Source of the DNA: Phyllosticta citribraziliensis
Taxonomy: Eukaryota
Assembly (NCBI RefSeq): GCF_038025025.1
Contig: NW_027117339.1
Coordinates: forward strand, 2,728,001 to 2,776,568
Reading direction: 5' to 3'
Length of the DNA: 48,568 bases
Shown here: positions 3,952 through 34,488 of the stretch, piece by piece
How the letters are laid out: each line of letters opens with the position of its first letter
Position numbering within the stretch: the first letter of the stretch is position 1
Notes under the pieces: generated by a model
Told to the model about the DNA's origin: nothing
Databases searched by the model: none
Seen by the model: the letters and a program-made list of their open reading frames with translations, nothing else
Translations under genes and position numbers: made by a program

Positions 3952-5650
3952 CTACCTATTTCCTAATATCTTATCTAAGGCTATAATATTACCTTTACTA
4001 ATAATAGTAAATTCTAGCTCTTTAATTATATCTATAAACTCCTTAGTAACCTCCTCTATAACTACTATACTATGAGTAAAGGTATATAGTTAGCTAATAG
4101 GGTCTAGGTATAGATAATCCTTAATCTAGTAGTCTAGATTATTATAATACTAATAACTATAGGAGCTAGGGGTTACTTCCTACTTTATAATAGTAGCTAG
4201 GACTACTACTAGGGTTACCTAATATAATAAACTAACTAATAGGCTATAAACTATAGCCTTATTTCTAACTAATTAGGAACTTAAACCTAGGTCTACTATT
4301 ACCTTACTAATATTAGCTACTTACTCTAAGTTACCTAGGAGCTTATTATAGTTAGTTATAATTTAGGCTATAGTAACTAACTAAAGTAGTCTAGTTAGCC
4401 TCTAGAGTAGCTAGTCCTTACTTATTTTAGTATCCTAGCTAGCCTAGTGTAGGCGGGACCAGCTACTTACTAATATACTTACTTAGCTAGCTAAGGTGCT
4501 AGCGCTAGAAGAGGTATAAGAGATAGTAACTAGTAGTAAATAAGTAGGCTCTATAGGATAGGAATAAAATAACTACTAAACTAACTAAAATAAGCTACTA
4601 TCTAGCCATCGCTTTACTATCTAAGTAGTATAAGATTTAGGTATAAATAATAAGTATAAATAAATAAATAACTAAGTATTTAGTAGATAATAGTTTAACT
4701 AAGTATAAAAGACTTTATTTATATAAGTAGTGCCTCTTAATAAGCAGCTATAAAAGGGGGTATATAACTAGCTAATCTACTACTAAAAATACTAATAGTA
4801 TAAAACCTCCTATTACTACTAAAGATACTAAATTTACCTATACTTTTATTAGCTATTATTATTACTACTAAACTATATAGAACTATACCTTCCTAGTATC
4901 CTAGAGCTACCTATAGTCTTATTTTCTTACTAGCCTAATCTTCTACTCATATCTAAGCTAAAACTATAGCCAAGAATGAGGACTATAATTACTAAAAGTA
5001 ACTATTAAAAGCCGTAAAAACCGTGCCGGCCAGCAGTGCTATACTAGTAAGTAAGGATCTAGTATATATAGAGATCCTATTTAAAACTAGTACTAGAGCT
5101 AGAGATTAAATATAGCTAGGTAAGCTATAAGAGGGTATAGCTATATATATTAGTAATACTAAATAGGCTATCTAATATAGCCTAGATCTTAAGAGGATTA
5201 GTCTTATTATAGTTACTAATAATAATAGTATATATAGCTATATCTAAGAGGTATAATTAGATATATATAGCCTTTACTATATTATCTAGAAAGTAGGCCT
5301 TATTAAATAATAGCTTATTAAGAATATTTTAATACTAGATATAATAGTCCTCTAGTATGCCCTTACTATTAAAATATTTAGGATTAGTAAGTTAGTACTA
5401 GACCTTATAGACTAGTATCTTACTATAGTTAACTAGTTTACTATAAGTAGTAAGTACCTATATAAGCTCTACTAGAAGCTTATAAGTTAATAATTTAGGG
5501 TTATTAATTCTTAGGGGTAGGTTATTATCCCTAGTAGAGCTAGAAATAACTAGAGGGCTAGATAATAGACTAGTAGCTAAAGACTATTAGCTAGCTATTA
5601 GTAAGATTTAGGGAGTAGCTAATAGTACTATACTACTAATAGAGATTTAG
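3952..5650 (-). pseudogene. E1 gag relic, interrupted by solo LTR-A copy 1
   Basis: CX2CX4HX4C knuckle (CWHCNNPDHWIKDC, ~4110-4155). Gag-like segment 'LPDPEHFDGK...W...ILDKL' (~5310-5395). Slippery-site-like ttaggaaataggtag (GGGAAAT then stop) at 3952-3966. The start is approximate. Confidence 0.75.
4448..5043 (-). mobile_element. Solo LTR-A copy 1 (596 bp) with CTAG 4-bp TSD
   Basis: Reverse-complement match to 7606-8201 and 25321-25916, same length. Flanked by ctag at 4444-4447 and 5044-5047. Host gag continues on both sides. Confidence 0.92.
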
Positions 5651-6145: not shown

Positions 6146-9077
6146 GTAGTAGCTTAATACTAATCTATAGGTTATAGCTATAGTTAGTAAAGAATAGGGA
6201 TATACTAATAGAAGAGTTAATATAATTATTAAGTATAAACTCTATATAGGGAAGCTAGAATATCTAGTTATTTTAATAGTAGTTAATAAAGGTATAGAGG
6301 ATATTTTTAATAGACTTATTAGTCACCTTAGTCTAGCTATTAGTCTTAGGGTATTAGGTAGAAGAGTACTTAATCTTAATACTATAGTAGTTATAGATAT
6401 ACCTCTAGACCTAGGCTAATATAATACTTCTATAGTTATTAATAAACTCCTTATAAAAGCTATATATATAGAAGAGGTACTAGGTAATTACTTTATATAA
6501 GGAATTAATACTATTATCTAGTAACCCTTCTAGAATAATAGCCTCTATAAGATAGTTAACTATAATAAGGATATAGGAGTAGTCTTAGTTATAGAAGTAG
6601 AAACTAGAAAGGTACTTAATAAAGTTAAAGCTAATACTAGTCTAGTAGTAGACTAGTAGGTTAAGTAGTTAAAGAAACCCCTACTTCTTCTAGTTACTAG
6701 TAGAGGAATAGTAGTAATAGGTATAGGTATAAGTAAAGATTAGATAGTTATTCTTTAAATTAGACTAGTAGTAAGAATAACTAATAAGTTTACTTATTAA
6801 CTTATAGCTAGGGTAGCTAAGGTATAGTAGAAGATAATAAGCTTATATAACTCTTAGATAGAGCTCTATATTATTAGGGATAAAGAGCTAGTTCTTTATA
6901 AATAGCTAGCTATTCTCTACTTTTAAGTATCTTATATAGAAATAGTAGCCCTTCTTAATAAGGAGTATAGGGATTTTTAGATCCTAGTTCTATATAGCTA
7001 TAATAAGGTACTATATATCCTTATTAGCCTTATAGGCCTTAGTAATAAGTTCTTATAGATAGGTAGTACTAGGTACCCTATAGCCCTTCTCTAATAGAGT
7101 AGGGGGTATAGCTAGAGAGCTCTAGTAAGGAGAAATAGGGGTAGGATAGCTTATAGTATAAGGTATTATAGAGAGGTAGGAGATAGTAGGTAGTAAGGCT
7201 AGGTTAAAGTAGTATTATTTTAGGACTATTTAGTATTAGTATAACTAGTAGGTATTTAAATTATCTTAGAGAAGGTTCTAGAAGTACCTAATAAGAAAAT
7301 TAGGCTTCTTATCTTACTTACCTAGGTAGTATATAATCTTAAAGTTAAATTTAGATAGGAACTTAGCCTAATAGGCTTACTAGTAGTTAAGATTCTTAGT
7401 TATTATAAATTATTCTAGGTTTTTATAGTTAGAGAAGATCTTTACTAAGTTATTAGGTTCTATACTAATAGCCTTAGGGTACTAGGCCTCTAGTACTTTA
7501 ATAATAGTAAAGAGCTCTTTATTATAGATCTTATAGTTATACTCTATAGGGGATATCTTCTTAGAGAAGAAGGCTACTAGATAGAGCTATTTATTAATAA
7601 CCTAGTGTAGCACTACTAGCCGGCACGGTTTTCGCGGCTTTTAATAGGTACTTTTAGTAATTGTAGTTCTTATTCTTAGCTGCGGTTTTAGCTTAGATAC
7701 AAGTAGAAGATTAGGCTAGTAAGAAAATAAGACTATAGGCAGCTCTAGAATACTAGGAAGGTATAGTTCTATACAGTTTAGTAGTAATAATAATGGCTAA
7801 TAAAAGTATAAGTAAATTTAGTATCTTTAGTAGTAATAGGAGGTTTTACACTATTAGTATTTTTAGTAGTAGATTAGCTAGTTATATACCCCCTTTTATA
7901 GCTACTTATTAAGAGGCACCACTTATATAAATGAAGTCTTTTATACTTAGTTAAACTATTATCTACTAAATACTTAGTTATTTATTTATTTATACTTATT
8001 ATTTACATCTAAATCTTGTACTACTTAGATAGTAAAGTAATAGCTAGATAGTAGCTTATTTTAGTTAGTTTAGTAGTTATTTTATTCCTATCCTATAGAG
8101 CCTACTTATTTACTACTAGTTACTATCTCTTATACCTCTTCTAGTGCTGGCATCTTGGCCGGCTAAGCAAGTATATTAGTAAGTAGCTAGTCCCGCCCAC
8201 ACTAGGATAGTATACTAGTAGTAATAAAGTTAGAGGTATTTATTTTAATCTAGGTTTCTTACTTAGGGTTAAAGTAGGTAAGAGTTAAGGTAGAGGTAAA
8301 TATAGTCTTAAAGGCCTAGAAGGTATATTTATACTTAGGGGTCTAATCTAGGGTAGTATAGATATAGTACTTCTTTCCTAAAGGAGTAGTCTTTAGCTCT
8401 CCCTTTATAAGTTCTATAAAAGGGTAGGTAAGTAAAGAGAAGTCCTTAATAAAGTAGTAATAGAAGTTAGTAAAACTAAGAAAAGTTTAAATATCCTTAA
8501 TAGACTTTAGAGTATACTAGTTTAGTACTACCTTTATCTTCTTAAGGTCTATATAGATACTATTAATACTAATAAGAAGGCTAAGGTATTTAACTTCTTC
8601 TATATAGAACTTATACTTATAGATATTAATAAAGAGTTTCCTATTAAGGAGGTAGGTAATAACTTTCTAGATATACTCTCTATATTCTTCTAGTATCTTA
8701 TTAAAGATAAGAATATTATTAAGGTAGGCTATAGCCTAAAGGTTAAGGTAGTTTTTAAGGGAGTTATTAATATAGCTTTAAAAGGTTCTAGGGGTATTAT
8801 AGAGTCTAAAAGGTATAATAAGGTATTTAAACTATCTATAGTAAGTAGTAAAGGCTATCTTCTACTTATCTCCTATAGTAATTTAGATATAGTTAAATAT
8901 AGTAATAATATTAAGCTTTATAAAGTACTTATAGCCTTAGAGGTACTAGAGAGTTTTATTTATATTAGGGATTAGGTACTAGTTCTTAATAGTAATCTTA
9001 TTAAGACCCCTATAGTTAATATAAACCTAGAGGCCTCTATTAGGCTTCTAAATAATAAGTATTAGGGCTATAGCTAG
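6146..9077 (-). pseudogene. E2 pol relic, distal part (RT, RNase H, integrase core)
   Basis: YLDD at 8715-8726; RNase H 'ETDASD' (~8228-8248) and 'ECNYEIYDKELLA' (~7505-7545); integrase 'SSAQHPETDGQTEVTNK' (~6315-6370). Confidence 0.9.
7606..8201 (+). mobile_element. Solo LTR-A copy 2 (596 bp) with CTAG 4-bp TSD
   Basis: Intact TGT...ACA termini (tgtagcac...cgcccaca). ctag at 7602-7605 and 8202-8205. Removing the LTR plus one ctag restores the RNase H frame of E2. Confidence 0.95.
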
Positions 9078-9663
9078 TATTATAGGCTAATAGGTCACCT
9101 GATTAGTAGGCTGGTTCTAAGTAACTATCTAGTTAATAATAAGGTATATAAGTATAGGAGATAAAGCTAAGTAAGAAGGGTATATAATAAGGTATAAGTT
9201 AAGTTAGTAGGGAGTCTACTTAGGAGTATTAATTATAAGAAAATAAAGATGGCTATCTATAGTATTTATATAATAAAATCCTTTTTATATTCTATTACCT
9301 AACTTACCTTAGGAATTATAACTAAAGGAAGGTAGGTACTATAAGAGAAGAGACCTTATCTTAATTCTAAATTATATAGTAGTTTACTAGCTTATTAATA
9401 GTAATATACTTCTTAAAACTAACTACTTAACTAAGTCCCTACTATAGGTATAGGAGGTTCTATTCTTATTTCTATTATTATATTAGTAATATATATATAG
9501 GTACTAGGGTTAAATTATCTAAGTAGCTATAGCTCTTAAGGAGTTAGGTAACTTTAGTATATATAGCTTATAGTTATAGCTAGTAGTTATAGTATAGGTA
9601 TACCTAGTACTTAATACTAAGTAGTATTTAATATAATTATAGGTTTTTAGCTAACCTATAATA
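9078..9663 (-). repeat. E3 3' LTR
   Basis: Direct repeat of 17387-17972, adjacent to the polypurine tract. Confidence 0.95.
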
Positions 9664-9674
9664 TTACCCCCCTC
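9664..9674 (-). other. E3 polypurine tract
   Basis: Reads gaggggggtaa on the minus strand immediately before the 3' LTR. Confidence 0.85.
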
Positions 9675-10151
9675 TAGGTTTAGCCTAAGGTATACCTATA
9701 GGTAAGAATAGTTATCTTATTTAGGTATTATACCTTAGTACCTTAGTAGGTATAGATTAGGTTTAAGTATTTAGCTCTATATAGGGAGTTAGTTTATCTT
9801 AAAGCTTCTATATACCTAGAATACTAGAGTAGGTACTCTAGTAGGTATACCTATAGCTATACCTATAGGTATAAGTCTAGTATAAAGGCTTTCTACCCCT
9901 ATCTCTAGCTCTAATCTTTATTACTATACTTATTATACCCTACCTCTTATCTTCTTTAGTAAGTTTACCCTTAGCCTATAGTATAGCCTTAACTAACTAA
10001 TAATCTAAGGCCTTTATTATAACTAGCTTTACCCTAATTAATTATCCTATAAGTTCTAATAGTTCTAGTTATTCTAGTAGTATAGATAGTAGTTTATAAG
10101 ATAAGTAAAGCCTTATTCTTAAGGTTTAAGTATTTAGTACTAATAACTTAT

Positions 10152-11789
10152 ATAGCTAGTAGTAATAGTTCCTCTAGTAGATCTTTAGAGTTTATACCTT
10201 TATATTCTTTAATACCTACTCTTACTAGCTAGCCTTATACTACTAGTCCTATATATACTCCTACCTATTTAGTTACTTTATCTATATATACTATATTATA
10301 TAGCTATACTACTCCTTCTAATAGTACTTCTACTATTACTTACTATTATACTTAGGCTTACTAATCTAAATATATATATCCTAGTATTAGTCCTTCTTAT
10401 AGCTCTATTAATCTAATTATAGGCCCTTCTAACTATCTACCTTTACCTTATTACCTTTACTAGTAGCCCTTACCTATATATAAAGGAAAGGGAAGAGCTA
10501 AGGAAGAGTCTAGTTCTAAGAGTTCTAGTAGGGGTTCTTTAGGCTTATCTTTACTAGAACCTAAACCTAAAGGATTTAATAAAGGTGGTATATATATCCT
10601 ATACTTAGGGGAGGTTTAGGCTACTTTAAGTAGGGTAAATAATCTATCTATTCTTTAGCTTAGAATTATACTAATAGAATCCTAGGCTCTAGGAAGTAAT
10701 ATTACCTATAGTATATATAAGGAGCTCCTATTATTACCCTATAGCTATATAGGTATTCTTATAGTTCCCTCTATTTTAGTAAATAACCTAGTATATTATT
10801 ATTCTTAAGCTTCTACTATAGCTATCTAGTTTACTAGTATCCTATAGGTAATAGGTTATAAGTACTATATATATATAGTACTACTAGGTAGTATTTACTA
10901 TCTATTTATTAGTTATTACTAGGTCCTAGGTTCCTTTAGTAGTAGCTATAGTAACTATAAGTAAGATAATAGTACTTCCTCTTATAGTATATATAACCCT
11001 AATAACTATATTTATAATAACTAGTATAATCTATTAGGTAAGGTCCCTAATTATTTAGATAACTTTATAGCTAGTCTTAGTAGTTTATCCTTAGAGAATA
11101 AGCCTATACTAGATACTAGAGCTTCTTTATCTAGGGAGACTAAGGCTAGCCCTACTAGTCTATTTATTAATATACCTTTACCTATATATATACTAGCTAT
11201 TCTATCTACTAGTTCTACTTCTACTACTTCTACTATATCTACTACTTCTTTACCTAGTAGTACTACTCTTTCTAAGTAGGAGGTAATAGTTCTATATATA
11301 CCTATAGGTTATCCTAGTTATATAGTTCCTATAGTCCCCTTAATAGCCTACTCTTCTTTATCCTTACCTATACCTAATAAGTATATTCCTTCTAATAAGC
11401 TAGGTCCTTCTTCCTTATCTAAGGAGTCTAGCCCTTCTTCTTTATCTAGTATATCTAGCTATAGTAGTACTAGCCTACTAGTATATATAGCTTCTCTACC
11501 TATTCCTAGTTCCTCTACTACTATACTATTATTAGTTTCTAGTCCTAAGATATCCTCCTTATCTTCCTTATTATTACTATTACCTACTCCTATAGTGCCT
11601 ATCTATACCTATACCTAAATTATTACCCCTTAGGGTTCCCTAGTTAGTTTCTTTAGTAATAATACCTTTATAGACTACTAGGGTATACCTCTACTACTAT
11701 ATAGTCTAGGTAATTAGCTTTAGGCTAAGGCTCTTACCTATTAGTCTAAGGCTAAGGGTTTATAGGAGGGAGAGGAGGAAGAGCCTTAA
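10152..11789 (+). pseudogene. E3 accessory ORF relic, antisense to gag-pol; Ser/Pro-rich protein with a DUF3716-like Cys cluster
   Basis: One continuous frame in which every stop is a RIP-type TAA/TAG. Unmutated KGKGRA at 10482-10499. De-RIP 'AMAIQFTG....GCEHC.........PFVGCRRVPGSFGGSCGNCK......SCS' at ~10815-10988. Acidic C-terminus EGEEEEP. The start is approximate. Confidence 0.7.
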
Positions 11790-11849
11790 TAGTCTACTTT
11801 CTTAGTATATAGTAGGTTTTTCCTAGGGGTATCCTACTTTTTCTAATAG

Positions 11850-14800
11850 TATTAGAGGGTATAGTTTTAGTTAGTAGCTTAGAGAGTAGGCTTATTATCC
11901 TTTATAGTACCTTTATAATTTAGCTTATATACTACTATATTCTTCTAGTCTTATAAGTATTTTAGTAGTCCTAGTACCTTAGGGAACTTAGTATAGTACT
12001 CCTTAATTTAATTAGGGATACTAACTATATCTAGGGCCTTATACTATATATTATCTTAGTTATATCCCTTCTACTAAACTTAGTACTTTAGGGTGCCTTA
12101 TTCTACCTTACTATTATATATAAAGTTAACTTTATATTCTTCTTAGTTCTAGTAGATAGTTAGAGGTTTAGGAATAGGGACCTAGCCTAGTAGAGGGGGA
12201 TAAGCCTTCTATAAGTAGTCTATATAGAAGAGGTTTATAACCTTAGTATATACTAGGAGGTCTAGCTTATAGGAGTATCCCTTTTTCTTAATAATATAGT
12301 AGGGCCCTTAGTTCTAGGTATTAAGCTTAGTACTAGATTAGTTAGTACTTATACCTTATATAGAGATATATACCTTATTACCTTCCTTAAAGTTAGGTTC
12401 CTACTAAAATTAGTTTATAGCTTATACTATTTATTCCTAGGTAAGACCTAGCTATTATTTAGCCTACTATATACTTTCTTATATATATTTAGTAAATCTT
12501 TATATAGTAATATAAGATAGTTTCTCTATAGGTTCTAGATATATAGTATATTTCTCCTAATTAAATAGAAAACTAGGCTAGTAGCTAAAGATTAATTTAT
12601 AGGGGGATATACCTATAGATTTATATAGGAGTATAACTTATATAAAGTCTAGTACTAGGAGCCTTTCTACCTAGTTATCCTAAAAATAGTTAATATATAG
12701 TTATAGATATAGGTTAATAACCTAGTTTATAATTTTAATAGTACTATTTATCTAGGAGTAGTAGGCTAAGGTAAGCTTCTACTTAACTCCTATAATTATA
12801 TATAGCTTATTCTAGAAATCTAAAATAAATTAGGGTCCTTAGTTAGAAACTACTAATTTAGGTATACTATATATTCTCTAGATATACTAGTAGTATAGTT
12901 AAGTAATGCCCTTAGTATTAATTACCTTATAGTAGGGAAGGCTAAAGGTTTACTTACTTAGCTAGTCTATAAATACTAAAATTATATTATACCTAGATTT
13001 ATCCTTAGGTATCTCCTTAAAGTCTATAGTAATATACTACTATACCTAGTCTAGGATTAGGAGGGGTTAGAGTAGTCCTAGTTTCTTATTATAGAAGTTT
13101 ATATTCCTTTAGTATATATAGCATACTTTTATAATATTATTAATCTACTAGGAGATACCTAGCTAGTAGTAGTATCTTCTTACTACTTCCTAAGTTTTAT
13201 TTTATCTAGTATATATAATTAAGGGTAATAAGTAAATTTTATTTATAAGTTCTATATATAGTATATCTTACTTAGGAATAAGTAGTTACTCTTTAAAGAA
13301 GAGGTAGTTATTATAGAAGGTCTAATTCTTCTTATTAGGTTTATAGGCTTATATATACTATTCTTCTAATAAGGTAGACTTTTTATTTACTTCTAGTACT
13401 CTATCTAGGATTAGGAATAAGCTACTAAAAGTAATATTAAGAGTATTTAGGTTAAGGATCTAGTCTTTAGCTACTAGTTATATTATATACCTAGTAATAC
13501 TCTTATTCTTCTAGGTTTATAGCTCTTCTTATTTTTAAGTAAGAGTATTAGTAATAATATTATCTCTTCCTAGCCTATATATAAATTTAATATGGTATTT
13601 AGTAAGTTTCTCTAACTATTAGGCTTATTAAGTATTAAGTTAGTATTTAGTAGAGAAGTATTTAAGTACCTAGTAATTAGTAATAGCTATAAATAGCTAA
13701 TATAGGCCTAGGAGTATACTTCTCTATTCTTTAAATCTATATATAATAGTAAGGAACTCCTTATTATAGATTTTATACTAGAGTTCTATATCTAATATTA
13801 ACTTAGAGTAAAAAGCTATAGGCCTCTATTCTCTAGTTTCTTAATACTATAATAGGACTCTAGCTATTACTCTATTACTTATATCTATTTCTATATATAT
13901 AACTAGTCTAGGATTATAATATACTATTACTAGGGAGCTAGTTATTATCTTCTTTAGTTATTAGAATATCTAGACCTTAAAATTATTAAGGATATAAAAT
14001 TTCTATTTAGAGTAGAGTTTCTCTAGTAGTCTAGCTATTCTACTATATTTAGGGATAAAGTTTTAGTAGAAATTATAAAACCCTAGGAAGGCTTAAAGTC
14101 CTTAAGGGTTATTAGTAGGTTCTATTTATATATAGTAGATATCTTATCTAGATCTATAGAGATTCTATTAGTAGAGATAATATATCTTAAAAACTTTATA
14201 TAGGTAATAGAGAATTTAGACTTCTTAATATCTACCTATAAGTTAGTATATTATAGTTATTTAAGTACCTTCTTAACCTACTACTTATACTTCTAAGGGT
14301 TCTCTAAGATAATAAGTAGGTTATCTATAAAAGTAATAATAAAATTATCTAGGTATAATATAAGTTCTTTATTAATAAAGTACTAGAATAAGGTGGGACT
14401 ATTATAGAGTCTAAAGGAGAATATAGTATACTTAAAATATCTATACTATATATAGAAGGTTATTAGGTCCTAGGATTCTAGGTCTATAAGAATTTAGTAA
14501 AATACTTATTAGATATCTAGCTTTATATATACTTTACCCTTAGTAATTCTTTAGAGAATTTCTTAGATAAGAGGTAGAGGGTATAGGTCTTTCTTAGTAT
14601 AGGTATTAAGATATTAGTAGTCTATATAGAATCTCTAGTTACTACTACCCTTCTAGACTATAAGAATTAGTAATATATATAGTATAGTACTTTTAACTAT
14701 AAAGCCTTTTTTAAGGTTTTTAAGGATGTACTTCTTTATAGCTTATAGTTATTTAATTATTATTCTATATAAGGGACTTAGAGGGAGGGAAAAGGGTTTA

Positions 14801-15650
14801 TTTCTATTAATAGTAATCTTATAATTAATACCTAGCTAGTATAGGGGTAGGGTATCTAATTATTATTTAGAAAAGATATCTTAGTATTCCTTATACTATA
14901 GTAGGAGGTATTTATTAAGGAGTTATATAATTTCTTTATCTTCTTTAAGTAAAGTAAGTTCTTAAATTCTTATATTAACTTCTTAGAGAGTAATAACTTA
15001 GACTTCTAAGCTTTTATCCTATATAAAAAGAGAGTTTAAAGGAATAAATAAAGAGTTAGTCCCTAAATTATCTATTTTCTCTTCTATATCTTTTTAGGCT
15101 TTTTCTCTTCTTTCTAGGTCTTCTTAGTATATTTCTAAGATTTTTCCTTATTAGTATACTACTAAGTAAACTAGGGGAAGTATTTTTTTATATATAGGTA
15201 GAGCTTTATTATCCTAGTTAAGAAGCTTATATTTTTTATAATCTAGTAAAAGGTTATTCTAAGAAAAGAAATATTTCCTAAGTATAAGATTATTATAACT
15301 AATTATTATAATAAAGGCCTATATTTTATATATTTTTTAGTAAAGGGTAAGAGTAAGGAAATAGGTATACTTTAGTTTAGTAGCTACTTATTTATTAAAT
15401 CCTAAGGCCTTAAGTATACCCTTAGTAATTTTATATTTATATATACTAAGAGTATTAAGGTATTATATAAGTTATAGGTAGATAAAGTAGGTCCTAAGAG
15501 TACTAGTATTAACTAGTACCTTAGTATAAAGAGCTTTTCTATCTTTATAGATCTTAGTAGGTATAGTAAAGGCTTATCCTTCTATAAAATTATTAATTCT
15601 AATATCTATACCTTTAAACTAGAGGGTCCTAATTATTATCTCTAGGGTAG
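11850..15650 (-). pseudogene. E3 pol relic (protease, RT, RNase H, integrase, chromodomain)
   Basis: LVDTGA (~15500-15520); F(V/I)DD at 14320-14331; ETDASD (~13874-13892); integrase core (~12600-13100); GPY (~12300); chromodomain 'EEYEVDFIHDSK.....LKYQVQWKGY..DDTWY' (~12040-12145). Confidence 0.92.
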
Positions 15651-15659
15651 GCCTAGAGC

Positions 15660-17050
15660 CTAGAGAAGGGAGTTTTCTAAGTTACTACTCTTAAAGGATT
15701 CTTCTAGTTTAAGTATTAGCTTATCTTCTTTAGGCTATATATCTATTTCCTTAATAGGAACTATATAGTCTTATATCTAGTATCTTTCTTTCCTATAATT
15801 ATAGTAGGTATCCTTTCTATTATTACCTATAGATTTCTTAGATTCCTTAGATTTAGTAGTATATAAAGAAGTACTAATATAACTAGGTTTCTTAGGAGTA
15901 GTAGAGCTAATACTAGCTTTCTTTCTAGAATATTCCTCCTACTATTATTTAGCTTTAGATTTACTTACTTATATATAAGAAGCTTAGTAATCCTTTAGGT
16001 TATATATAATAGTAGATACCTTATTAATATAGTCCTAGAACTTAATATAGTTATTATCTTTATAGAGTATTATATATATTTTTAATTAAAGGTTTAAAGA
16101 GGTATAAAACTCTTCCTTCTATTAGGACTAGGGTAGGTCTATATCTAGGACTAGAGCTATAAATTTAGTAATATATAATTAGAAATTATTACTAATATAG
16201 AAGTATAGGTACTAGAGACTATCCTTAACTTCCTTTCTTTTAAAGGGATTATTAAACTTATCCCCTAGAAAGGTATATAAATTAGTATTAGTAATAAGTA
16301 ATTCTTTTTTTTCTTTAGTATTAAGGAATAGAAGAAGGTAATTAGCTACTTTACTATTTATTCTAGATATAATATATACTATAATTACTACCTTAGTATC
16401 TATAGGGTTATCTAAGATAAATTAGTTATAGTTAGTCTAAATTTTATTCTTAACCTAGTAGAGCTAGACCTAGTACTTAGGTACTTTTCTATTTATAAGG
16501 AGAGGTAGATCTAGGATCTTAATATAGTACTTTTAGATAGGCTAGCTAGTAGTAGTATAAGCTAAATTATAGGAGAATATAGTTCCTTTATAAGATAAGT
16601 ATTTATAGTAGGTTTATTCTTTAGTAATTTTATCTATTATATAGACTAGTAGGATTACTAAAATCTTATTCCTATAGTAGTTTATAAACTATCTATAGTA
16701 GGAGATTACTCCTTTTATAGTAGCTACTTAGTACTTCTTATTAAGGAGTAACTTAATAATCTCTATTTTATAAGTCTTATTATACTAACTCTTACTAGGT
16801 ATCTCCTTAGATCTTAAGAGTTTATTAAAGAGCTTAGGAATAATTTCTATATAGGGCCCCTATTCTATTACTACCTTAAGTAGCTTTAGATTCTCTAAAC
16901 TAATTTTATAAATTTATAGGGGGATAGGATTCTCCTCTAGTTCTAGAGGAGAGTTATTAGGGTTTCCTTCTATTTATATAAAAGGGATTAGAGGAGCTAT
17001 AGAAGTTAACCTTATTACTCTACCTTCTTAGCTAGATTCTAGATTAGCTA
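15660..17050 (-). pseudogene. E3 gag relic
   Basis: Zinc knuckle CYNCGKEGHWMRDC (~15765-15806). GGAAAAC-like frameshift site at ~15670-15682. The start is approximate. Confidence 0.8.
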
Positions 17051-17386
17051 TAATTAACTAGTTCTTAACTTAGTCTAATCTATATAATATAACCTTATTA
17101 CTTATAGGGGTTTTAGAGTAGGAGACTACCTATATTCTCTTTATATACTAATCTCTACTTCTTATATAAAGTAGCTCTAGCTATATACCTAGAGGTCCTC
17201 TAGGCTTATAGGGGTATCTACTAGTACTTATACTATAAGACTTAGAGTAGGGCTTAGCTAACTAGTATAGGTATTATTCCTAGAATATATACCTAGTATT
17301 CTTAGTAGGGGATATTTTAGACCTTCCTAGGTATTAGGAGAATTAGTATAAGGAAAGATATAGTAACTTAATAATCTTTATTTTTC

Positions 17387-17972
17387 TATTATAGGCTAAT
17401 AGGTCACCTAATTAGTAGGCTAGTTCTAAGTAACTATCTAGTTAATAATAAGGTATATAAGTATAGGAGATAAAGCTAAGTAAGAAGGGTATATAATAAG
17501 GTATAAGTTAAGTTAGTAGGGAGTCTACTTAGGAGTATTAATTATAAGAAAATAAAGATAGCTATTTATAGTATTTATATAATAAGATCCTTTTTATATT
17601 CTATTATCTAATTTACCTTAGGAATTATAACTAAAGAAAGATAGGTACTATAAGAGAAGAGACCTTATCTTAATCCTAAATTATATAGTAGTTTACTAGC
17701 TTATTAGTAGTAATATACTTCTTAAAACTAACTACTTAGCTAAGTCCCTACTATAGGTATAGGAGGTTCTATTCTTATTTCTATTATTATATTAGTAATA
17801 TATATATAGGTACTAGGGTTAAATTATCTAAGTAGCTATAGCTCTTAAGGAGTTAGGTAACTTTAGTATATATAGCTTATAGTTATAGCTAGTAGTTATA
17901 GTATAGGTGCGCCTAGCGCTTAATACTAAGTAGTATTTAATATAATCATGGGTTTTTAGCCAACCTATAATA
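17387..17972 (-). repeat. E3 5' LTR
   Basis: Direct repeat of 9078-9663, followed by the TSD gctag. Confidence 0.95.
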
Positions 17973-19950
17973 GCTAGAGAGGTACTAGGTTAGATATACC
18001 CCTTATAGATAAGGTTATTAATATAGTAGTAGACTACTTCTATCTCCTAAGGGTTAAAGGGTCTATAATTATAAGTAAATAGGGGATCCTTTCTAGCTTC
18101 TAGGGTAATCTTATAGTCTTTAGGTAAATAGTTAGGGAGAGATTTAGTATACTCCTAGTTAAAGATAGAGATAAGGTTATAGAGGTAGCTAGGGACTTAG
18201 GACTTTAGTTTAGAGAGTAAGAGTTTAGATTTCCTCTTTTTAAACTTCTTAAAGTCTTCTAGAGTAATAGTATTAGTTATAGTAGAATAGAGTTAGATAA
18301 TAGAGTTAATAGGGAAGAGGAGATTAGAGTTATAGTTATATTAATAGGTAAGTTAGTAGAAGGAGGTAGTACTAATAAACTTTATATTAAAAATAGACTA
18401 CTCCTTATCCTTCTATAGTAGAGGAGTATCTATAGTAAAGACTTAGACTAGTTTTCCTTTAGTAAAGTAACTAGTATAGAGATAATTCTTAAAGGAGAGG
18501 GTAATAGAGTACTATTTATAGTTAATAGTAGTATTATATTTAGAGAGCTAAGAGTCTCTAAGGATAAGGGAGAGTTATAGAATAGTTATAATATAGTAGA
18601 AGACCTAGCTAATATAGTTACTAAGGGCTAAGTTTACTAGTATAGTATATTTAAGAATAGAGTTAACTAATCTATTAGTATTAAGGAGCTTTATAGGTAA
18701 CTAGAGTAGAAAAGTATTAATATAATATTTATATATATAACTCTTATTAATTATATTTACTTTAGTACTACTATTAAGTAGGATCTTTATAGGGGAACTA
18801 TCTATTAAGGAGTAAAAGACTAGGTAGCCCCTAACTTAGGGTTAGGTAATATCTAATATTAAAATCTTATAAGATAGTAAACTATAAGTTAAATCTTATT
18901 TAATAGAGAAGGAATAAAGAGTTATAAGCTATACTAGCTAAGAATCTAAAGAGTAACTATCCTCTAGGTTTAACCTTTTAACTTAGGGTTAGTAGTAATC
19001 TTCTTATTAGTAAAGGAATTATTAAAAGAGCTAATATCTATAAGGTTTAGATAAGTAGGGTAAGGGTTAAGGTCTTAAATAGAGTAGACTAGGTTACTAG
19101 TATAGTATCTAGAGCTCTAATAATAGAAGTAATAGTCCTAAGTAGTAAGCTTTATATAACTAGTTAAGTTAAGCTTCTTAGAGGATAGCTTAGGCTTATA
19201 CTAGACTCTAGTCTAACCTAGAGATTTTATAGTAGTAGGCCTCTATTTAGGGCTAGAGAAGCTATTAGTAGTTAGAACTAAGGAGTAAATTATAAGATAA
19301 GAGGAGTTATTTCTAGCTAGCTAGCTTTACTAGTATAAGGACTAGGAGTAAGGTTAGTAGGTATTAATACTAAGTATATTTCTTTTAATATTTTAGAAGA
19401 TCTTAAGGATATTAAAAGTCTAGGTAAAGGTTAGATAAAGGATATAATAAGAGAGAGAGAGATAAAGAGAGTAAATAAAACTTTAGAGATACTTATCCTC
19501 TATATACCTAGCTTAGGACTAAAGGGTAAGAAGCCTTATATAGAACTAGAAGGTATTCTTATCTCCTCTCTAATAGATAGAGTAGAGTTCTATATAGGCT
19601 CTCTTAACTAGGTTAGAGGTACCTAATTAGTATTTAATCTTATAAAAGAAGTTAGAGAGGGAAATAAAGTAGCCCTTATAATTATAGTAAGAGAACTATT
19701 CTTATATAGAGGTAAAGAGGGGGTTATTAAGGAAGTAGAGGGTATAGAGTATTTTTCTCTTCTCTATAGGATAGAGGGGGGTATCTATTTTTAGTTTTAT
19801 TTTAATAGTAAAGTACTATTAGATATACTTATTAGGGTTAGTACTATTAAACTTCTCTAATAGGTTTATACTAGATTTCTAGAAGGACTTTAATAGGATA
19901 ACCTAAGTAGTAATAGAGTCCTTATAAAGAAAAGGGGTTTCTTTATAGTT
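17973..19950 (-). pseudogene. E2 gag-protease and N-terminal pol relic
   Basis: Zinc-knuckle-like CFRCQSSGH (~19090-19125); LLDSGA at 18764-18781; ggaaaactag slippery site plus stop at 18448-18457; RT N-terminus at 17973-18070. Confidence 0.8.
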
Positions 19951-20349: not shown

Positions 20350-23300
20350 CTTAACCTAAGGACTAGCTATTAGGTAGGTATAGTCCCTTTTTATTATTTA
20401 TCTAATACTAATTTAGGATAGTCTTAGCTACTCTATTAAATAAGCTATTATTAGTATCCTACTAGGTTATATTAGGTAGATATCCTATCTAATAAACCTA
20501 AAACTATAGTATACCTCCCCTTTACTTATTTATCTAGGTATCTAGGACCTCCTATATATACTACTCCTCTTTACTCTTATTATTTAGCTCTAGTAGTAGG
20601 AGTAGCTCCTATTAACTAGATAATAGCCTATTATTATATTAATATAACTACTCTATATTAAATTAGTTAGTAATATAAGAGCCTTATAGTAGGTCTAATA
20701 TTACCTAGTTACCTCTTATAGAGTCTACTTAATATAGCCCTAGATTAGGCTATCTAAGCTTCTAGGGGTATCTAGTATCTATATACTTTACTTTAATAAA
20801 GATAAGGTTATTCTCTTAAATATTATAAGTATATTAGTACTTATTAGCTTAGTATACTTATCTCTCCTTTATAAGTATAAGTACTAACTAAGTCTTTAAC
20901 TAGATATCCTCTATTAGTTTTACCTATTCTATAGCTAATATCTTAGCTCTTAACTTTAGTTTTACTTTACTATAATTAAAGTTTATATATAGTTTAAAGC
21001 TATAATATATAAAGAAGGGGGATATACCTATAGATATATTAACTAATATATTAATTATAAGTTTAGTAATTAGTAGCTATATATCCTAGTTATCTTATCT
21101 CTAGTTAATAAAGCTATATAAGTACTTCTTAAGCTCTTAGTTAGCTTACTCTATTTAGCTATCTAACTATAGGTAATAGGGAGTTATTAGCTTAGCTATT
21201 ATCTTTAGTTACTATAGTACCTCCTTCTATAAGTTAGTAATAAACTATAGGCTATAGTCTAAAATAATAGTCCTTAGTAGGCTATAGAGGCTAAAGACCT
21301 ACTTAATTATTATTTTAGCTATCTTAGCTACTCCTATCCTACTATCTTCTATACTATACTTAATATAGTACTTAGACTTACTAAACTAGTTATATACTAT
21401 AAGGATAGTATTATAACCCTATTTAGTCTTCTTAAGGCTAGTTATAAAGTCTATAGTAAGGTCCTCCTATAGGTACTCTCCTACTAGTAATAGCTATAAT
21501 AGGCTATTTATTTTATTATATTTCTAGCTATAGCTATAAAGTATATAGTTCTTTATAAGTTAGGTAATTAGTTCTCTTATCTTTAGAAAGTAATACTAGC
21601 TTAATACTATAGGGTATATTCTAGCTATACCTAGATATCCTATTACTAGCTAATTATAGATATACCTAAGTAAGTAGATATATAGGCTATTCTCCTCTAG
21701 TATATATAACCTATTAGCTATATATAGTAAGCTATTATAGAGTATATATACTTTATACTCTCCTACTTACTTATAGAGAGAGTCTATTTCTAGTATTATC
21801 TTATAGTTATACTATTTAATCACTTTAATAATATCCTCTAGGTCTATTAGGTCTAGTTAGCTAGTAATAGCTTTAGGGTCCTTTATCTAAATATTACTAT
21901 TATCTTTCTTTCTACTAGTTATTAGGTTTACTATACTAGTAGAAGGTAAAGTAGGTAGGGAAGGAGTATTATAGTCTACTCCTCTTAGTCTTAACCTATT
22001 AACTAAGGTCTACTCTTCCTATTTATAGTTACTATTATTACTTATAAATTATATTAGGAGAGGGGGAAGTATAGAGCTAATAAGTAGTATTAGCTACTTA
22101 TTCTCTAGCTTTACCTTAGTATACTCTAGGTCATCTTTAATAATATTATCCTTATACTCCTCTAGAGGGGCGTAGAAGGGAGTATACTTATTAGATTTAT
22201 TTATAATAGAATTAGCCTAGTCTAGGAGTAGGTCCTACTATTTATAGGACTTATCTAATCTCTTAGGGGGGAGTAGTACTTAATACTAGTACTAGTTATA
22301 ATTATTATTTTTAGTTACTTAGTCTTATATTTAGTAGGTAAGAGTGTCAGCTTTACTATTTACTTTTCTAGGTTAGTAGATAATCTTAAAATAGTATCCT
22401 ACTAGTTCTTTATTCTACTAAATCTAATACTATTAGAGCTTCTTAGTTATTATAAACTACTATAGTATCTAGTAATTAGTATATATAGTAAATAGTTCTA
22501 GGTCTACTAACTTTAGTTCTAGCTCCTAGGCTTTAAGCACTATAATAATAGCTAATAACTCCTTATTATAGATTATATAGTTTATTTTAGCTAGAGTTAT
22601 AGTATATAAGAAGAAGGCTACTAGGTATATTTATCTATTAATCTTCTAAGAGAGAACCCTACTAATATTAATATTAGATATATTAGTCTCTATAATAGTC
22701 TTAAGCTTTAGGTTAAAGTAGTATAAGATAGGTATACTTATTATAGTATCCTTAAGAGCCTTAAATACTTACTACTATTCTAGTCCCTATATAAATAGGA
22801 TATCCTTCCTTATTAGCTATATTAGTAGCTTAGCTTTACTACTAAATCTATAGATAAAATACCTATAAAAGTTTATAAATCCTAAGAATAACTAGATATT
22901 ATATATAGAGTAGGGGGCTTACTAGCCTATAATTACCTTAATCTTTATAGGGTCTATCCTTAGCCCCTAGGTAGTAATAATTACTCCTAAAAACTTTATT
23001 TCTTATATATAGAAATTATACTTATTAATATCTACTTATAAACTCTAGTTATATAGGTATTTTAGTACTTTATAGATATATTACTAGTACTCTTTAAGTA
23101 TCTTACTATAGATTAGTATATTATTAAGATATACTATATAGAACTTATTTAGGAACTCTATAAGATACTAATTAATAAGTAATTACTATATAGCAGGCCT
23201 ATTTACTATACTAAAAGGTATTACCTTATAGTAGTGAGTACTAAACTTAGTTTAGAATATTATAAGATTATATAAATCTTTATTAACTAGGATATAGTTA

Positions 23301-24745
23301 AAAGCTTATCTAATATCTACTTTTATAAGATATTTAGCTCCCTAGATAAGGGTAATAATTTTTATTAATTAGTAAGATAGCATACCTATCCTTCTTTATT
23401 ATATTATTAAGTTATTAGTAGTCTATATAGAACTATACTCCTCCTCTAGGCTTATAGACTAATAAGATAGGGGATAAGATAGATAAATAGCTCTTCTTAA
23501 TAAAGTCTTTAGCTTTATTCTCTTAGATATACTATTTCACCTTACTAGCTATTACCTTAGATATATATAATAGCTATCTATACCTAATACTATTAGTATT
23601 ACTACTTAGTTTAATCTTAAAGTCTAAGCTAGGGTAAGAGGGCAGTAACTTATTAGATACCTCTTTAGAAAATACCTTAAGTAAATTATAATACTCTTTT
23701 AGCACCTTAGTCTTTAGGTCTATAGCCTCCTTAGAGTACTTATCTTACTAAAGATTAAGGTCCTTCTAGCTAATATAGTTTATACCTTATACCTAATTAA
23801 TAGCTTTAGGGTAGTTAGTATTAATAAGGCAGTAGACTATTATCTCTACCCCTTTCTCTTTATCTATAAGTATAAATATGGTACTATAGGCCTTTAGGCC
23901 ATACTTCTTAACTATCTTCTTATATATAGACTATAAGATAGGGGTAATATCTTTAGTACTATCCTACTTTACCTATATCTTATATAGTAACAGCAATAGA
24001 GCCTTATATCTAATTATTACTATAATTAATTCTTTACTATAAGTATACTTAGTTTAGGTTATTTCTATTAGGGAATCTCTACTTTTATCTTAAGTCTTTT
24101 AGTTATCTAGTCCTATTAGTAGAACTGTCTAGCTTGGTAACTTACTCTCTAATTAGTCTAATTCTACTAGTAGAATTAGTTAGTAAGCCTCTTTATTATT
24201 TAATTAGCTAGATTCTACTAGTAGAATCCTCTTTAGGATTTTAGGTATTATCTATAATTTACTATTTTTATAGAGTAATCCTATATTTATATTTACTAGT
24301 TATTAAATCTCTAGGGTACTAGCTCCTATATTAATTATAAAGCTATACTACTTTTAGTACTCCTAGCTAATATATATATTATAATCCTTACTAAGTAGTA
24401 TAATTATAAATAGTATAGAAAGGTTATAATATAGTCCTACCTATAGGTAGAAGTTTAATTAGTATATAAATTAGTAGTAGTCTTTTTTAGTAAAACCTAT
24501 TATAATATAAGGCTTTTCTAGAGGCTACTTATATACTCTATACTAGTAGAGATAGTTTACTAATAAAGTATTAATATATATATACCCTCTATAGCTAGTA
24601 TCTACTAGGGCTTAAAGAGGGATAACTTATCCTATAATATATATATAGATAATATAAGAGTAGGATAAAGAGAGTCTATTACTACTTAATCTATCCTTAT
24701 CTAAACTATTATCTTATATACCCTACTCTATAACTTTAAGTAAGG
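20350..24745 (-). pseudogene. E4 pol relic
   Basis: ALVDTG at 24594-24611; YLDD at 23120-23131; RNase H 'HPVAFFS......EINYEIYDKELLA' (~22550-22630); chromodomain 'EEWYVQEVLD.......LQFQVHWTGYPPDTTW' (~20460-20570). Confidence 0.92.
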
Positions 24746-24746
24746 C

Positions 24747-25320
24747 TACTTATTTTCTAAGTTAGTATTAATAATATAAATAGACTAAACCTTATCCTTA
24801 TTTTTATCTAGGTAGTTATAGGAGATATAGCCTATCTTATTATAGTTATAATACTTTACTATAGATATATTATATTTACTAGTAATATTCTTATCCTTCT
24901 CTATATCCTTATTATCTATATAAGTAGTATTAGTATTAGTACTATTACTACCTTAACTACTATAGAATCCTCTATATCTACTATATCCTCTATAGGAGGT
25001 ATATCTACTAGTATATATATTATTATCTCTATCCTTATAAGTCTTAGTACTAAAGGTATAGTTATAGGTAGCCTAAGTATTAGTAGTCTCTATAAGAAAT
25101 AAGATTATATTATTAAGAGAGTTATTATATTAAGTAAGTATAAGATAGTAGTTACTTTATAAAAGCTTAACTAATAGACTTTCCTTTATAGTTATATAAT
25201 CCTAGCTAGTAGCTATAATAAGGGACTAGAACTTAATAAGGAATTCTTTTAGTAGGGTAGTACTTTATATAAGAGTACTAAGCTTAGTAATAGTATTACC
25301 CTACTTATTATTAATACTAT
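24747..25320 (-). pseudogene. E4 gag relic, C-terminal part
   Basis: CYNCNKMGHISRNC knuckle (~24812-24853). ttagaaaataagtag frameshift site plus stop (~24747-24760). Retrotransposon-gag-like helix region up to 25320. Confidence 0.8.
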
Positions 25321-25916
25321 TGTGGCACTGCTAGCCGGCACGGTTTTCGCGGCTTTTAATAGTTACTTTTAGTAATTGTAGTCCTTATTCTTAGCTGCAG
25401 TTTTAGCTTAGATATAAGTAGAAGATTAGGCTAGTAAGAAAATAAGACTATAGGTAGCTCTAGGATACTAGGAAGGTATAGTTCTGCGCGGTTTAGTAGT
25501 AATAATAATGGCTAATAAAAGTATAGGTGAATTTAGCATCTTTAGTAGTAATAGGAGGTTTTATACTATTAGTATTTTTAGTAGTAGATTAGCTGGTTAT
25601 ATACCCCCTTTTATAGCTGCTTATTAAGAGGTACTACTTATATAAATAAAGTCTTTTATACTTAGTTAAACTATTATCTACTAAATACTTAGTTATTTAT
25701 TTATTTACACTTATTATTTATACCTGAATCTTATACTACTTAGATAGTAAAGTAATAGCTAGATAGTAGCTTATTTTAGTTAGTTTAGTAGTTATTTTAT
25801 TCCTATCCTATAGAGCCTACTTATTTACTACTAGTTACTATCTCTTATACCTCTTCTAGTACTAGTACCTTAGCTGGCTAAGTAAGTATATTAGTAAGTA
25901 GCTAGTCCTACCTATA
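25321..25916 (+). repeat. LTR-A copy 3, probable 5' LTR of E5
   Basis: 596-bp match to the two solo LTRs, but flanks differ (ctat / tttt) so there is no TSD. A plus-strand gag-pol follows. Confidence 0.88.
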
Positions 25917-26476
25917 TTTTATAGTATAGCTTCTATAGATTAGGAGCTTACTATTACCTAATTATATAAATATATAAGAGTAGTAGAAATTAGGTAAGTA
26001 AAAGGCTTTAGGACATCTCTAATAAGTACTATTAATTTTACCCTCCCCTACCTAGCCTATTATTAGATATTTACTATACTAGTTATTACTATTGTACTAA
26101 AGATTATTTATTTAATTATTTTAAGTACTATTTTATAGATACTATATAAGCTATAAGATTAATACTTATAATTTTATAGCAGGATAGTATATACTCTATA
26201 GAACTATAATACCATACTATTTAACTTTAGCTAGTTCTATTTTTATTAAGTATAATATTATTCTAGGTATTTCTACCTATAAAGTATAGGGGATAAGCCT
26301 AGATAGTTAATACTATAGTTTTTATATAATTATATTATAGATATTAGATTATTAAGGTCTATTAAGTTTCTAGGACTATTCTATTATATTATAAGGTTAG
26401 TAGTTTATATAATAAGTTATAAAGGTAGATTTAGATATAATTATATAATAAATTTAATAGCTAGCCTATAAGAATT

Positions 26477-29400
26477 ATAAGTTCTTCTAGTAGATTAGGA
26501 AGAAATAGAAGAGGAGGAAGAGGTATATTAAGAGGAGATAAAGGGAAAGGATAATAATCTAGCTCTTATAATAGAGGGTACTCTCCTAGAGGCCAGCTAT
26601 AGAGGCCTATAATTACTTAAGAAGGACTATCTATAGTACCTCTATTACTAGTAATTAGTACTTAAGCTCCCTTATAAGGTATAGGGCTAGCTTTAGGTTT
26701 ATTTAGACCTTTTACTAGACTAGGTACACCTCCTATAATTATACTACTACTAGGGATAGATAATAATAAAATAATATAGCTAAGCTAAGCTACTTAGCTA
26801 ATACTAGATACTATAGAAATAACTCTCCCCTAGCCTAGGGGGGAGTTATTATTACTAATAGAAGCTAACTAATATTATATAAGAATAGCTTCCCTAATAT
26901 AGATAATCCTAATAAGCTAGATACTAGTACTAAAGTAAAGGCTATAGTTTAGGGGAGATAATATATTATTATTCCTTAAGATATATAAATACTTCTATAC
27001 TATAGCTAGGAGTCTCTTAGAAGAGTTTATACTAAAGCTAGTTTAGTATTATAAAACCCTAATAGGCCTAGAAATCTACTATACTATTAAGTTCTAGATT
27101 AGAGATTAGAAAGGTCTAAAAGTCTAGATACTAGTATAATATAAGAACTAAGATATTAGTATAATTAATAGGCACTAAAGCTATATTAAGAACTTAGCTA
27201 AGAGATATAAGGACCTCTATTACCCTTCTAAAGTAGATAAGTTTTTTAGGCTTTATAGGATACTTAGTAATAAGGTAGTAGAAGAAGGATATATTAATAA
27301 AAGCCTATAAGAGATATAGTTCCTTAATACCCTATATATAGATATATAAACTAGGTTCTTATAAAAGGGGTATTTAGCCTATAGAGCTAGGAATATTTAG
27401 TATCTCTAGTTATATATTAAGGCCTAGCTAGAATATAAGTAGTATATATTATTATACTCTATAGACTTACTAGAGGTTATAAATATAGTTATATACTATA
27501 TTAAGGGGCTAGACTATATTATAGACCCTATACTAGTAGGGAGAGGATACCTTCTATAGTCTCCTTTACTACTTATAGTATTATCCTCTAATAGCTCTTC
27601 CTCTATAACTATAGCCTTAAATAGATAATTAACCTCTAAGACTAGAACCCCTTTAGTAAAGAGTAATAATACTATAATTAGAGACCTAGTAGATAAGCTA
27701 GCTAAGATATATATTAAATTAATCTAGGAGGCTACTAGTTATATCTATAAATAGCTAGTAGATAGTAAGAAGTATAGGTATATTATAAATAATAGGGACC
27801 TATATATAAGAGTTATCTAGTTATTATTTCCCTATAATAGCTCTATTAGGATAGGCTAGCTAGCTAAGTAGTATATACTACTACTAGGATAATATACTCT
27901 ATAAGCAGGTCCTAGTCTTCTACTAATTAGGCTACTACTACCTAGGATAGCTCCTATAGGCTAACTATAGTATAACCCTAACTCCTATAACTAGATAGGA
28001 CCTACCAGTTTAAATATAAACTAAAGTATAGAAATAGGAGAATACTAGAGTTATAATAAGATAGGCTATATAGTTAGGAGTTATCCTATTCTATTACTAT
28101 TTATATATACTAGCCTTATATCTATTAGTTAAAATAGATATATCTAGGACTTTAATAGCTAGCTAATATTAACTTATAAGTAGAATAAATAGCTAGATAT
28201 TAAGAAGTACTTATAATATTAGGGGTAGATAAATAATAATAATTTACTAAAAATACTACTAGTACTAGAATAATAAGTAACTCCCTACTAGACTAGTAGA
28301 GAGTTATTATCTTAATCTATAATAAATAAAGAACTATAAGGATATTAGCCCCTACTATAAATTAATACTAGATATAATATACCTTTAGACTATAGCTAAT
28401 ATAATTAAGACTAATATAACTAAGACTAGGGCTAATATACTTAGATTAACTATACTTAGGCTAATATAGAGGATAGTAGGCCTTATTTCTATTAGATTTA
28501 CTATTATAATAAAGGAATAATATATAGTATATACTATTTTAAGGGTAAAGTATCTCTTAGAAATATAATCTTTATAAACCTAATAAAGATTATAAAATAT
28601 ATAAGGAAGCTAAAGAAGCTAGCTAGGAGAAGAGGAGCTAAAATCTTATAAGTAGTAGTTAATAAAATAGCTATTAATAAATAAGTTAGGAATATAGCTA
28701 AGTAGGTAATAATTAATAAGACTAGGAATATATCTAATAAGGATATCCTAGGTATAACCCTACTAGTAAATATACCTTAATAGCTAAGATAACTAGCTAT
28801 TACTAATCTACTAGGTAATAATATTAAAGAACCTACTATCTCTAGTAAAGAGCCTACTTAGGAGCCTAATATAGATAAACCTTAAAGGGTAATAGTAGAG
28901 GATACTAATAAGGATATATCTAATATTAAAGAGATCCTATAAAATAAGCTAAGTATTATACTAAAGGGATTAGAGAATAATAAGCTAGAGCTACTTAGTA
29001 AAGGGGCCCCCCTTAAGTAGTACTAGGTTAAAACTATTATATTTAGAGACCTATTCTATTATAAATAGTATAAACTAGGCCTAAATAGCTAGAGATATAG
29101 AGATATCTTTAATAAGGAGACTATTAGGTATATAAAAGGAATCCTTAGCCTATATAATAATATATAGAAGTTATTTCATACTCCTATTAGTACTAAGATT
29201 ATAGAAGAGGTCTAAGAAATACTTTATAATAACCTATAGGTACTAAATAAATACCTATATATAATAGAGGACCTATAGAAGCTAATATATATTATATATA
29301 TAGAACTAGTTAATAATATTAAAGGGTACTAGTTTAACTCCTCTAATAAGCCTATAAAATTTAACTTCTCTTAGTATTACCTATTTAAGTAAGAGGATTA

Positions 29401-33915: not shown

Positions 33916-34488
33916 AACTTCTAGATCCTTAGAGTTTTAGTATTTTAAGGTAAAGTTTATATATTTAAGGGAGGTAATAGCATTAAGAGAGTTTAAATTA
34001 ATAAGGGTATAGTAAGTTTAGTACTAATAGGCTAATAGTAATATTTACTAATTATAGCTTAGTATACTACTAATAACTCTCCTCTAGACTAGGGGATAGT
34101 TATTAGGCTAATTAGGAGCTATAAAATAACCCTATACAATACCTATAAGCTTATATATCCCTAAAAATCCTTAGGACCCTAATAACTAAACTATTAGGTC
34201 CTAAGCTAAAAATATTTCTTTATTAATACTATAAGTAGGAATAGAGTTTTAGTATTATTATTAAGTATACTAAGTTAATAAGGATATAGTATATAATTAT
34301 AAGCTAGCCCTTATATTAGGACTACTCCTTACTAAGTATTTTACTCTTAAGTAGTTATTTCTCTTACTTATAGTAAGATACCTTAGAATTTTCCTAATTA
34401 GGCCTAGCACAGGTAGTACTCTTACTAAAGAATTACTACTTAACTATTATAACTACCACCCCTATAATAATTCCCCCCTACTATTATA

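Follow-up and report, generated by a model that had tools for sequence, protein, structure and literature searches.

Genes comparable in position or domain content to the one considered here are known from several transposons. In Boty-like (BcGypsy1) elements of Botrytis cinerea and Sclerotinia, which are chromodomain-bearing Gypsy elements, an extra gene of unknown function, brtn, lies antisense between pol and the 3' long terminal repeat (LTR) (PMC7264820, PMC8365987, PMC4227169). In Zymoseptoria tritici, two expressed DUF3716 genes, REP9-1 and REP9-2, are found inside the class II transposon REP9 (PMC8232023), and DUF3716 has also been reported for Styx of the same fungus (PMC10853768), probably the same transposon, a description of 7.9 kb and four genes agreeing with this. 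In Arabidopsis, VANDAL elements, which form one Mutator-like lineage, encode the anti-silencing accessory protein VANC, with DUF1985/DUF287 domains, and are enriched in a short word of their own, located in non-coding tandem repeats that VANC binds and differing between families (PMC5735166). Here we analyse a stretch of 48,568 nucleotides from Phyllosticta citribraziliensis (contig NW_027117339.1, positions 2,728,001 to 2,776,568; hereafter the window), where the minus-strand Ty3/Gypsy element E3 (9078–17972), destroyed by repeat-induced point mutation (RIP), contains an opposite-strand gene with a DUF3716 cysteine block.

An antisense gene at the position seen in E3 and a DUF3716 gene on a transposon are each already known, from brtn and REP9 respectively, and the statement of an earlier note on this DNA that standard chromoviruses encode only gag and pol is not supported, given the reports on brtn cited above. 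What E3 adds is mainly a long, divergent form of the DUF3716 gene, E3 itself being dead. The E3 accessory gene looks like one long frame, unlike brtn, which is a multi-exon gene. E3 shares with the brtn elements a Gypsy backbone, ending in E3 in a putative chromodomain, and an extra antisense gene; the two were compared by description only, and the accessible text of the three papers on brtn ascribes no DUF3716 domain to it. With REP9 it shares the carriage of a DUF3716 gene within a fungal transposon; REP9, however, is an IS3EU-like DNA transposon, its tested effect was on pycnidia, and neither a word lattice nor self-recognition is mentioned in the accessible text of PMC8232023.

Results

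The frame in question occupies 10152–11789 on the plus strand, antisense to E3, and comprises 546 codons including the stop. It had been described as continuous, and is not open, as 22 internal stops, every one TAA or TAG, interrupt its 545 codons; it is nevertheless the stretch with the fewest stops among comparable ones in the window. The other five frames over the same interval contain 46–106 stops each, the window median is 67 per 545 codons, and each of the five stretches with the lowest counts shares sequence with this frame. The sense frames of E3 contain 33 stops in 467 codons (gag), 29 in 300 (reverse transcriptase, RT) and 65 in 530 (integrase). The putative start of the gene was placed at an ATA codon, with the help of the non-triplet indels that other copies show just upstream. 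A basic stretch, KGKGRA, is present as read at 10482–10499 (plus strand), as the earlier note had observed; it falls in a gap of the alignment to P0002, the database homolog of the frame, and is missing from the consensus of the small DUF3716 relatives described below.

Within this frame, positions 10857–10985 (plus strand) hold a block with the spacing C-x2-C-x15-C-x10-C-x2-C-x8-C, which fits the x2-x(9-17)-x10-x2-x8 pattern of 41 of 43 natural DUF3716 domains. The Cys pattern noted earlier is in place, but no cysteine is present as read, since all six codons are now TAT; the letters give L-F and F-S-S-S-Y, and the motif appears only once RIP is allowed for. We therefore built a 28-column profile from 42 distinct natural blocks and scored every codon position of the window with it, letting each TA stand for CA, TG or CG. 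The 28-codon block at 10902 reached 40.5 bits and ranked first of 96,958 positions, the next best being -11.3; it was still first (21.3 vs 8.5) after dropping the 10 columns of the scan pattern, and a gapped profile gave 56.5 at this block vs 23.5 for the next of 648 bins. This ranking excludes a chance origin of the motif. With RIP undone, E3 matches the PF-x2-C...FGG-x-C-x-NCKW block, and its 28 codons align without gaps to the small-protein subfamily, with 18 of 28 consensus residues identical or RIP-reversible. The resemblance to DUF3716 proposed from the raw letters is thus borne out, and RIP-aware comparison identifies the predicted block as DUF3716 (PF12511). A Pfam search gave neither DUF3716 nor any other family on the RIP-damaged frame as read, and the DUF3716 profile found nothing on the six frames of the window as read. 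The profile part ahead of PF, covering the N-terminal part of the small proteins, gave no signal in E3, and the E3 frame is far longer than these proteins (546 codons vs about 170–200 residues). Because the N-terminal profile finds nothing, the E3 protein would be a longer, divergent form with the same Cys block.

P0002, from Phyllosticta citribraziliensis, was the single database protein matching along the E3 frame (E 1.2e-37), and is a gene model that leaves out the Cys block. It is identical to E3 at 168 of 292 aligned residues, and RIP in the window accounts for 51 of the 124 mismatches. An Atlas look-up of P0002 gave no usable match, and no close, unmutated E3-like pol proteins were found at E 1e-30. 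The second match in the 1.84-billion search, P0003, was rejected, being a repetitive, low-complexity fish SEA-domain protein without a real alignment; the profile used in that search excluded the Cys block and so could not find DUF3716 proteins.

We also compared copies by aligning contigs of 4 of 11 sequencing runs to positions 9000–12600, divided into 30 bins. Runs X3 and X5 cover all 30 bins; in X1 and X2 coverage of the frame is incomplete, which is not evidence of absence. Of the changes listed between X3 and the window, 306 of 426 are A>G or T>C, and position 10964 is G in every covering X3 contig, as expected for a conserved Trp codon. Among the 12 of 45 indels inspected, those inside the frame are +15, -9 and a +1 that a -1 compensates five bases away, and those just upstream are -1, +2 and -1; of the X3 contig joints over the region, one skips 246 bases, in frame, and another has a net loss of 55, out of frame. 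The complete coverage by X3, together with an intact element of the same layout (L022, below), supports the view that the antisense region is a feature of the family and not of a single copy.

In principle the element could hold here, as neutral cargo, a piece captured from a host gene or what is left of a nested insertion, or RIP could have produced the motif by chance, as might be argued from the lack of a Pfam or profile match as read and from the sole close protein being a gene model that skips the Cys block. We regard this as highly improbable, given the first rank of the block in the RIP-aware scoring, the lowest stop density of the window, the mostly in-frame indels among copies, and the same position and orientation of the gene in intact Gypsy and Copia carriers. 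These results show that E3 is a dead copy of a Ty3/Gypsy family that genuinely possessed a third gene, which encoded a DUF3716 protein and lay in antisense orientation in the interval from pol to the polypurine tract.

In order to place this gene among its relatives, we scanned metagenome contigs with a back-translated motif and obtained 52 DUF3716 loci; the same kind of scan of viral contigs gave none. In Pfam, PF12511 was matched by 10/10 whole open reading frames (ORFs) and 43/43 trimmed domains, and was the only domain common to both sets. The small form has named relatives in Blastomyces, Histoplasma, Helicocarpus, Villophora, Usnea, Nemania, Penicillium and Trichoderma, and the Atlas clusters are without exception ascomycete-dominated. 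One Blastomyces protein, P0052, has DUF3716 and PF12550 (GCR1-like) on one chain.

Carriers were assigned by Pfam on 55 neighbouring ORFs and by tblastn among the loci. On this basis 32 of the 52 loci, including 3 duplicates and some assigned on short matches, adjoin transposon genes, namely hAT (16), OrsD/RecQ-type (6), Copia (5), Gypsy (3) and Crypton-like NDC10_II (2); the other 20 loci are short or without a class. The layout of L022 is that of E3 in intact form, with a pol that includes a chromodomain, the antisense DUF3716 gene, a polypurine tract and an LTR, and in L050 the DUF3716 gene stands ahead of the polypurine tract and LTR in a tandem arrangement. In the hAT elements L001, L005 and L015 and the Crypton-like L014 the gene is enclosed by terminal inverted repeats (TIRs). 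Locus L025 (1-7266) is a Copia unit whose 7139 bp assembled into a circle; an antisense DUF3716 gene stands just past the end of its polyprotein. A pogo element (L024) was rejected as a carrier, as its TIRs (905–2989) leave the gene outside and it has one CGTACG site only. Judged from these neighbours, DUF3716 genes of the small type are passengers in unrelated classes of fungal transposons, and the family is, by the same assignments, common to several such classes and not special to chromoviruses. Mapped on a FastTree tree with 26 domains as leaves, the carrier class needs 9 changes, where the minimum is 4 and shuffled labels average 12.2; DUF3716 identity across classes reaches 72%; the tree, whose backbone is weakly supported, would fit repeated exchange between classes. 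The OrsD (PF12013) and RecQ-type helicase genes of L007, L028, L029, L047 and L052 adjoin DUF3716 genes and bear the CGTACG lattice described next, and this suggests that these units are mobile elements themselves.

In the intact carriers of the small-protein subfamily, the palindrome YCGTACGR recurs throughout the element at intervals of about 134 bp. In the 52 loci, CGTACG occurs 832 times against 93.5 expected under an order-2 model, 39 of the loci have it among their five highest-ranking hexamers (of 4096), and its commonest context is TCGTACGA. Median spacing is 134 bp, with evenness above random in 9 of 12 elements, and where borders are visible the lattice ends at them, with 25 of 26 sites of L014 lying within the TIRs and 44 sites in the Gypsy part of L050 vs 2 in the adjacent long interspersed nuclear element (LINE). 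The word is written into coding sequence: 13 carrier coding regions have CGTACG at 260 of 396 permissive sites (41.7 expected), and seven control genes, a small set in which L053 and L054 are CG-poor, at 4 of 39 (1.6 expected). The residue pairs R-T and V-R are over-represented in carriers, up to about 3.8-fold over expectation. A second word, CGGACG/CGTCCG, is enriched in L052 (600–1060 and 8113–8415), L009 and L046; no DUF3716 domain in the tree diverges more than that of L052, and the second word may possibly mark a changed specificity. The pairing of gene and lattice has no description in the literature searched, which comprised the main text of openly accessible papers and in which DUF3716 occurs in two papers.

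What reads this lattice might be a transcription factor of the host, such as a Zn2Cys6 activator of the sterol pathway, the elements having converged to borrow its activation while DUF3716 serves as a cofactor or has a separate job. Yeast Upc2 sites do resemble the lattice word. The 19-bp repeat of the Pfcyp51 promoter of Pseudocercospora fijiensis contains TCGTACGA, promoters with extra copies of this repeat raised expression in swap experiments (PMC6637983), and the same word, C/T-CGTACGA, lies upstream of CYP51 in Cercospora beticola (bioRxiv 10.1101/2020.11.12.379818). The word is also constant across classes, whereas VANC motifs diverge (PMC5735166). Nevertheless, elements without DUF3716 in the same contigs (the LINE of L050, a Tc1 element in L014 and the pogo element of L024) are without the lattice, and reading by a host factor gives no clear reason for even spacing through coding sequence at a cost in amino acids (R-T, V-R), so that we consider it unlikely.

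As full RIP turns CGTACG into TATATA, we looked for this hexamer in E3. As predicted beforehand, one count put it first among the enriched hexamers of E3, and a non-overlapping count put it fourth; its density was 14.05 vs 7.94 per kb, its runs numbered 85 in E3 against 247 (p 6e-4), and one X3 contig has CGTACA at 10589 where the window has TATATA. Several observations weigh against a former lattice in E3: the segment 25915–34500 is equally rich in (TA)3+ runs (9.2/kb), the 9.56 runs/kb of E3 compare with 11.5–18.1 in simulated RIP carriers and 5.6–12.9 in simulated controls, and the codon phases of TATATA mismatch. Site positions common to E3 and L050/L022 were discarded as lattice evidence, because they follow conserved residues, and an alternative E3 word (AGGTAT and GGTATA types) was rejected, because its spacing was uneven and the leading words of other segments were at least as strong.

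These data bear on a further reading, that the E3 gene is a real DUF3716 passenger of a brtn-like branch without a lattice, acting on the host, for instance on its development, or through antisense RNA. The length of the E3 frame, the lack of a match to the small proteins before the Cys block and the mixed TATATA signal of E3 all agree with such a branch, as do the lowering of pycnidia number in Zymoseptoria by the transposon-borne REP9-1 (PMC8232023) and the roles of antisense RNA discussed for plant elements (PMC7264820). The gap-free 28-codon match to the lattice-associated subfamily (18/28 residues) and the rank of TATATA predicted in advance speak against it, and we hold it to be fairly unlikely.

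E3 itself is a Ty3/Gypsy LTR retrotransposon by its paired LTRs, 5-bp target duplication, polypurine tract and pol order. Target-site duplications GCTAG at 9073–9077 and 17973–17977 flank the element, as had been claimed for it, and its minus-strand 3' LTR (9078–9663) and 5' LTR (17387–17972), of 586 bp each, are 96.6% identical. The polypurine tract (9664–9680, minus strand) abuts the 3' LTR, a position also seen in the intact L022 and L050. The pol relic (about 11951–15750, minus strand) comprises a protease region, RT, RNase H, integrase and an SH3-like and chromodomain-like end, protease and integrase having been assigned by eye from the translation; since pol stops near 11951, the distance to the tract is about 2.27 kb and not 2.1 kb as first noted. 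With stops read as X, Pfam found RVT_1 (E 7.5e-11) and RT_RNaseH_2 (E 1.7e-15) in pol, with SH3_Tf2-1 (E 1.8e-4) below its cut-off; the order is RT, RNase H, SH3_Tf2-1, and the alignment to L050/L022 pol extends through the integrase region. The designation of E3 as a full-length chromovirus stands as regards LTR pair, tract and gag-pol; Pfam made no Chromo match in E3 as read, and its putative chromodomain is assigned by eye and from a local alignment with the pol of L022, which reaches the chromodomain region there. The putative gag relic (about 15751–17150, minus strand) is a low-stop frame.

The window as a whole consists of fungal repeats mutated by RIP (TpA/ApT 1.86; (CA+TG)/(AC+GT) 0.03; 25 CG dinucleotides in 48.6 kb). 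Tblastn with L050/L018 pol found three further minus-strand Gypsy pol relics (383–2776, 6168–9074 and 20996–23732), into the second of which E3 is inserted; none of the three gave a DUF3716 block. A second LTR family of about 600 bp has three copies (4439–5049, 7602–8210 and 25315–25914), 93–94% alike with one inverted, which contain most residual CG sites of the window. The plus-strand relics at 25915–34500 and 38000–48500 resemble, by eye, the protease, RT, RNase H and integrase of further LTR elements, and gave no tblastn match from the pol queries used; a plus-strand frame with few stops lies at 34489–37220.

Discussion

A regulatory DNA-binding role appears likeliest for the E3 DUF3716 protein, which the earlier note pictured as probably nuclear, transcribed from the 3' LTR side and possibly a transactivator or silencing suppressor. 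The lattice palindrome can be likened to two paired CG-purine half sites, as in Zn2Cys6 binding sites. Like the Zn(II)2Cys6 clusters of Gal4 and HAP1, DUF3716 has two C-x2-C pairs within six cysteines, but its spacers are longer (9–17 and 10), and Pfam made no Zn_clus match among the trimmed domains. An AlphaFold model of the trimmed domain is confident, with a pLDDT (predicted local distance difference test) of 87.5, and all eight rows of a Foldseek search with it are HAP1 Zn2Cys6 chains, at non-significant E of 2–5. Because of these E values and an empty VIA search with the domain model, the link to the Zn2Cys6 fold is a lead; a PDB sequence search for the domain found none. The small proteins have acidic tails that end in a short hydrophobic motif, which we take to resemble SUMO-interacting or activation motifs. 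A Fusarium DUF3716 gene has been called orthologous to Neurospora NCU05718 (PMC10776026), a protein that binds double-stranded TTAGGG directly and has no annotated domain (PMC4650311).

The DUF3716 protein may bind the palindromes of its own element and keep that element active, which is our preferred reading and in our view about as likely as not. The six-Cys block would form a stretched Zn2Cys6-like cluster and bind the sites of the element itself, each made of two CG-purine half sites with TA between them; the protein would coat the element at roughly nucleosome spacing, and the coated element would stay accessible and expressed in spite of host silencing, an effect exerted in cis and also on sister copies. 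The mode of action would be like that of VANC, without kinship. The longer, divergent protein of E3 probably had a comparable task, whether on this word or on a different one, before RIP destroyed its gene and blurred any sites.

The likeness to VANC lies in an element-encoded accessory protein combined with a short word enriched in its own element. The proposed DUF3716 module differs in its six-Cys domain and in a single palindrome that is shared across classes, evenly dispersed and written into coding sequence. By domain content the DUF3716 proteins are not VANC, since the 43 trimmed domains and the 10 whole ORFs have DUF3716 alone in common, and no Mutator-type domain was seen among the 55 neighbouring ORFs scanned.

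A broader proposal, which we put forward tentatively as somewhat short of an even chance, is that at least five unrelated kinds of ascomycete transposon share a swappable module of a DUF3716 zinc-cluster gene and a lattice of its own palindrome that spans the entire element at a spacing on the nucleosome scale, for cross-class anti-silencing or self-activation, such that any carrier could help any marked element. E3 would then represent a longer branch of the protein, which worked for a chromovirus until both its gene and its lattice were lost to RIP.

These proposals bear on the means by which transposons of fungi remain active in the face of heterochromatin, DNA methylation and RIP. A gene and site common to DNA transposons and retrotransposons would be unusual, VANC being confined to one plant lineage, and the occurrence of the same word in two fungal cyp51 promoters makes a link to host gene control possible. 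If the proposed binding is true, DUF3716 would gain its first molecular function, through a small protein and a candidate 8-bp site.
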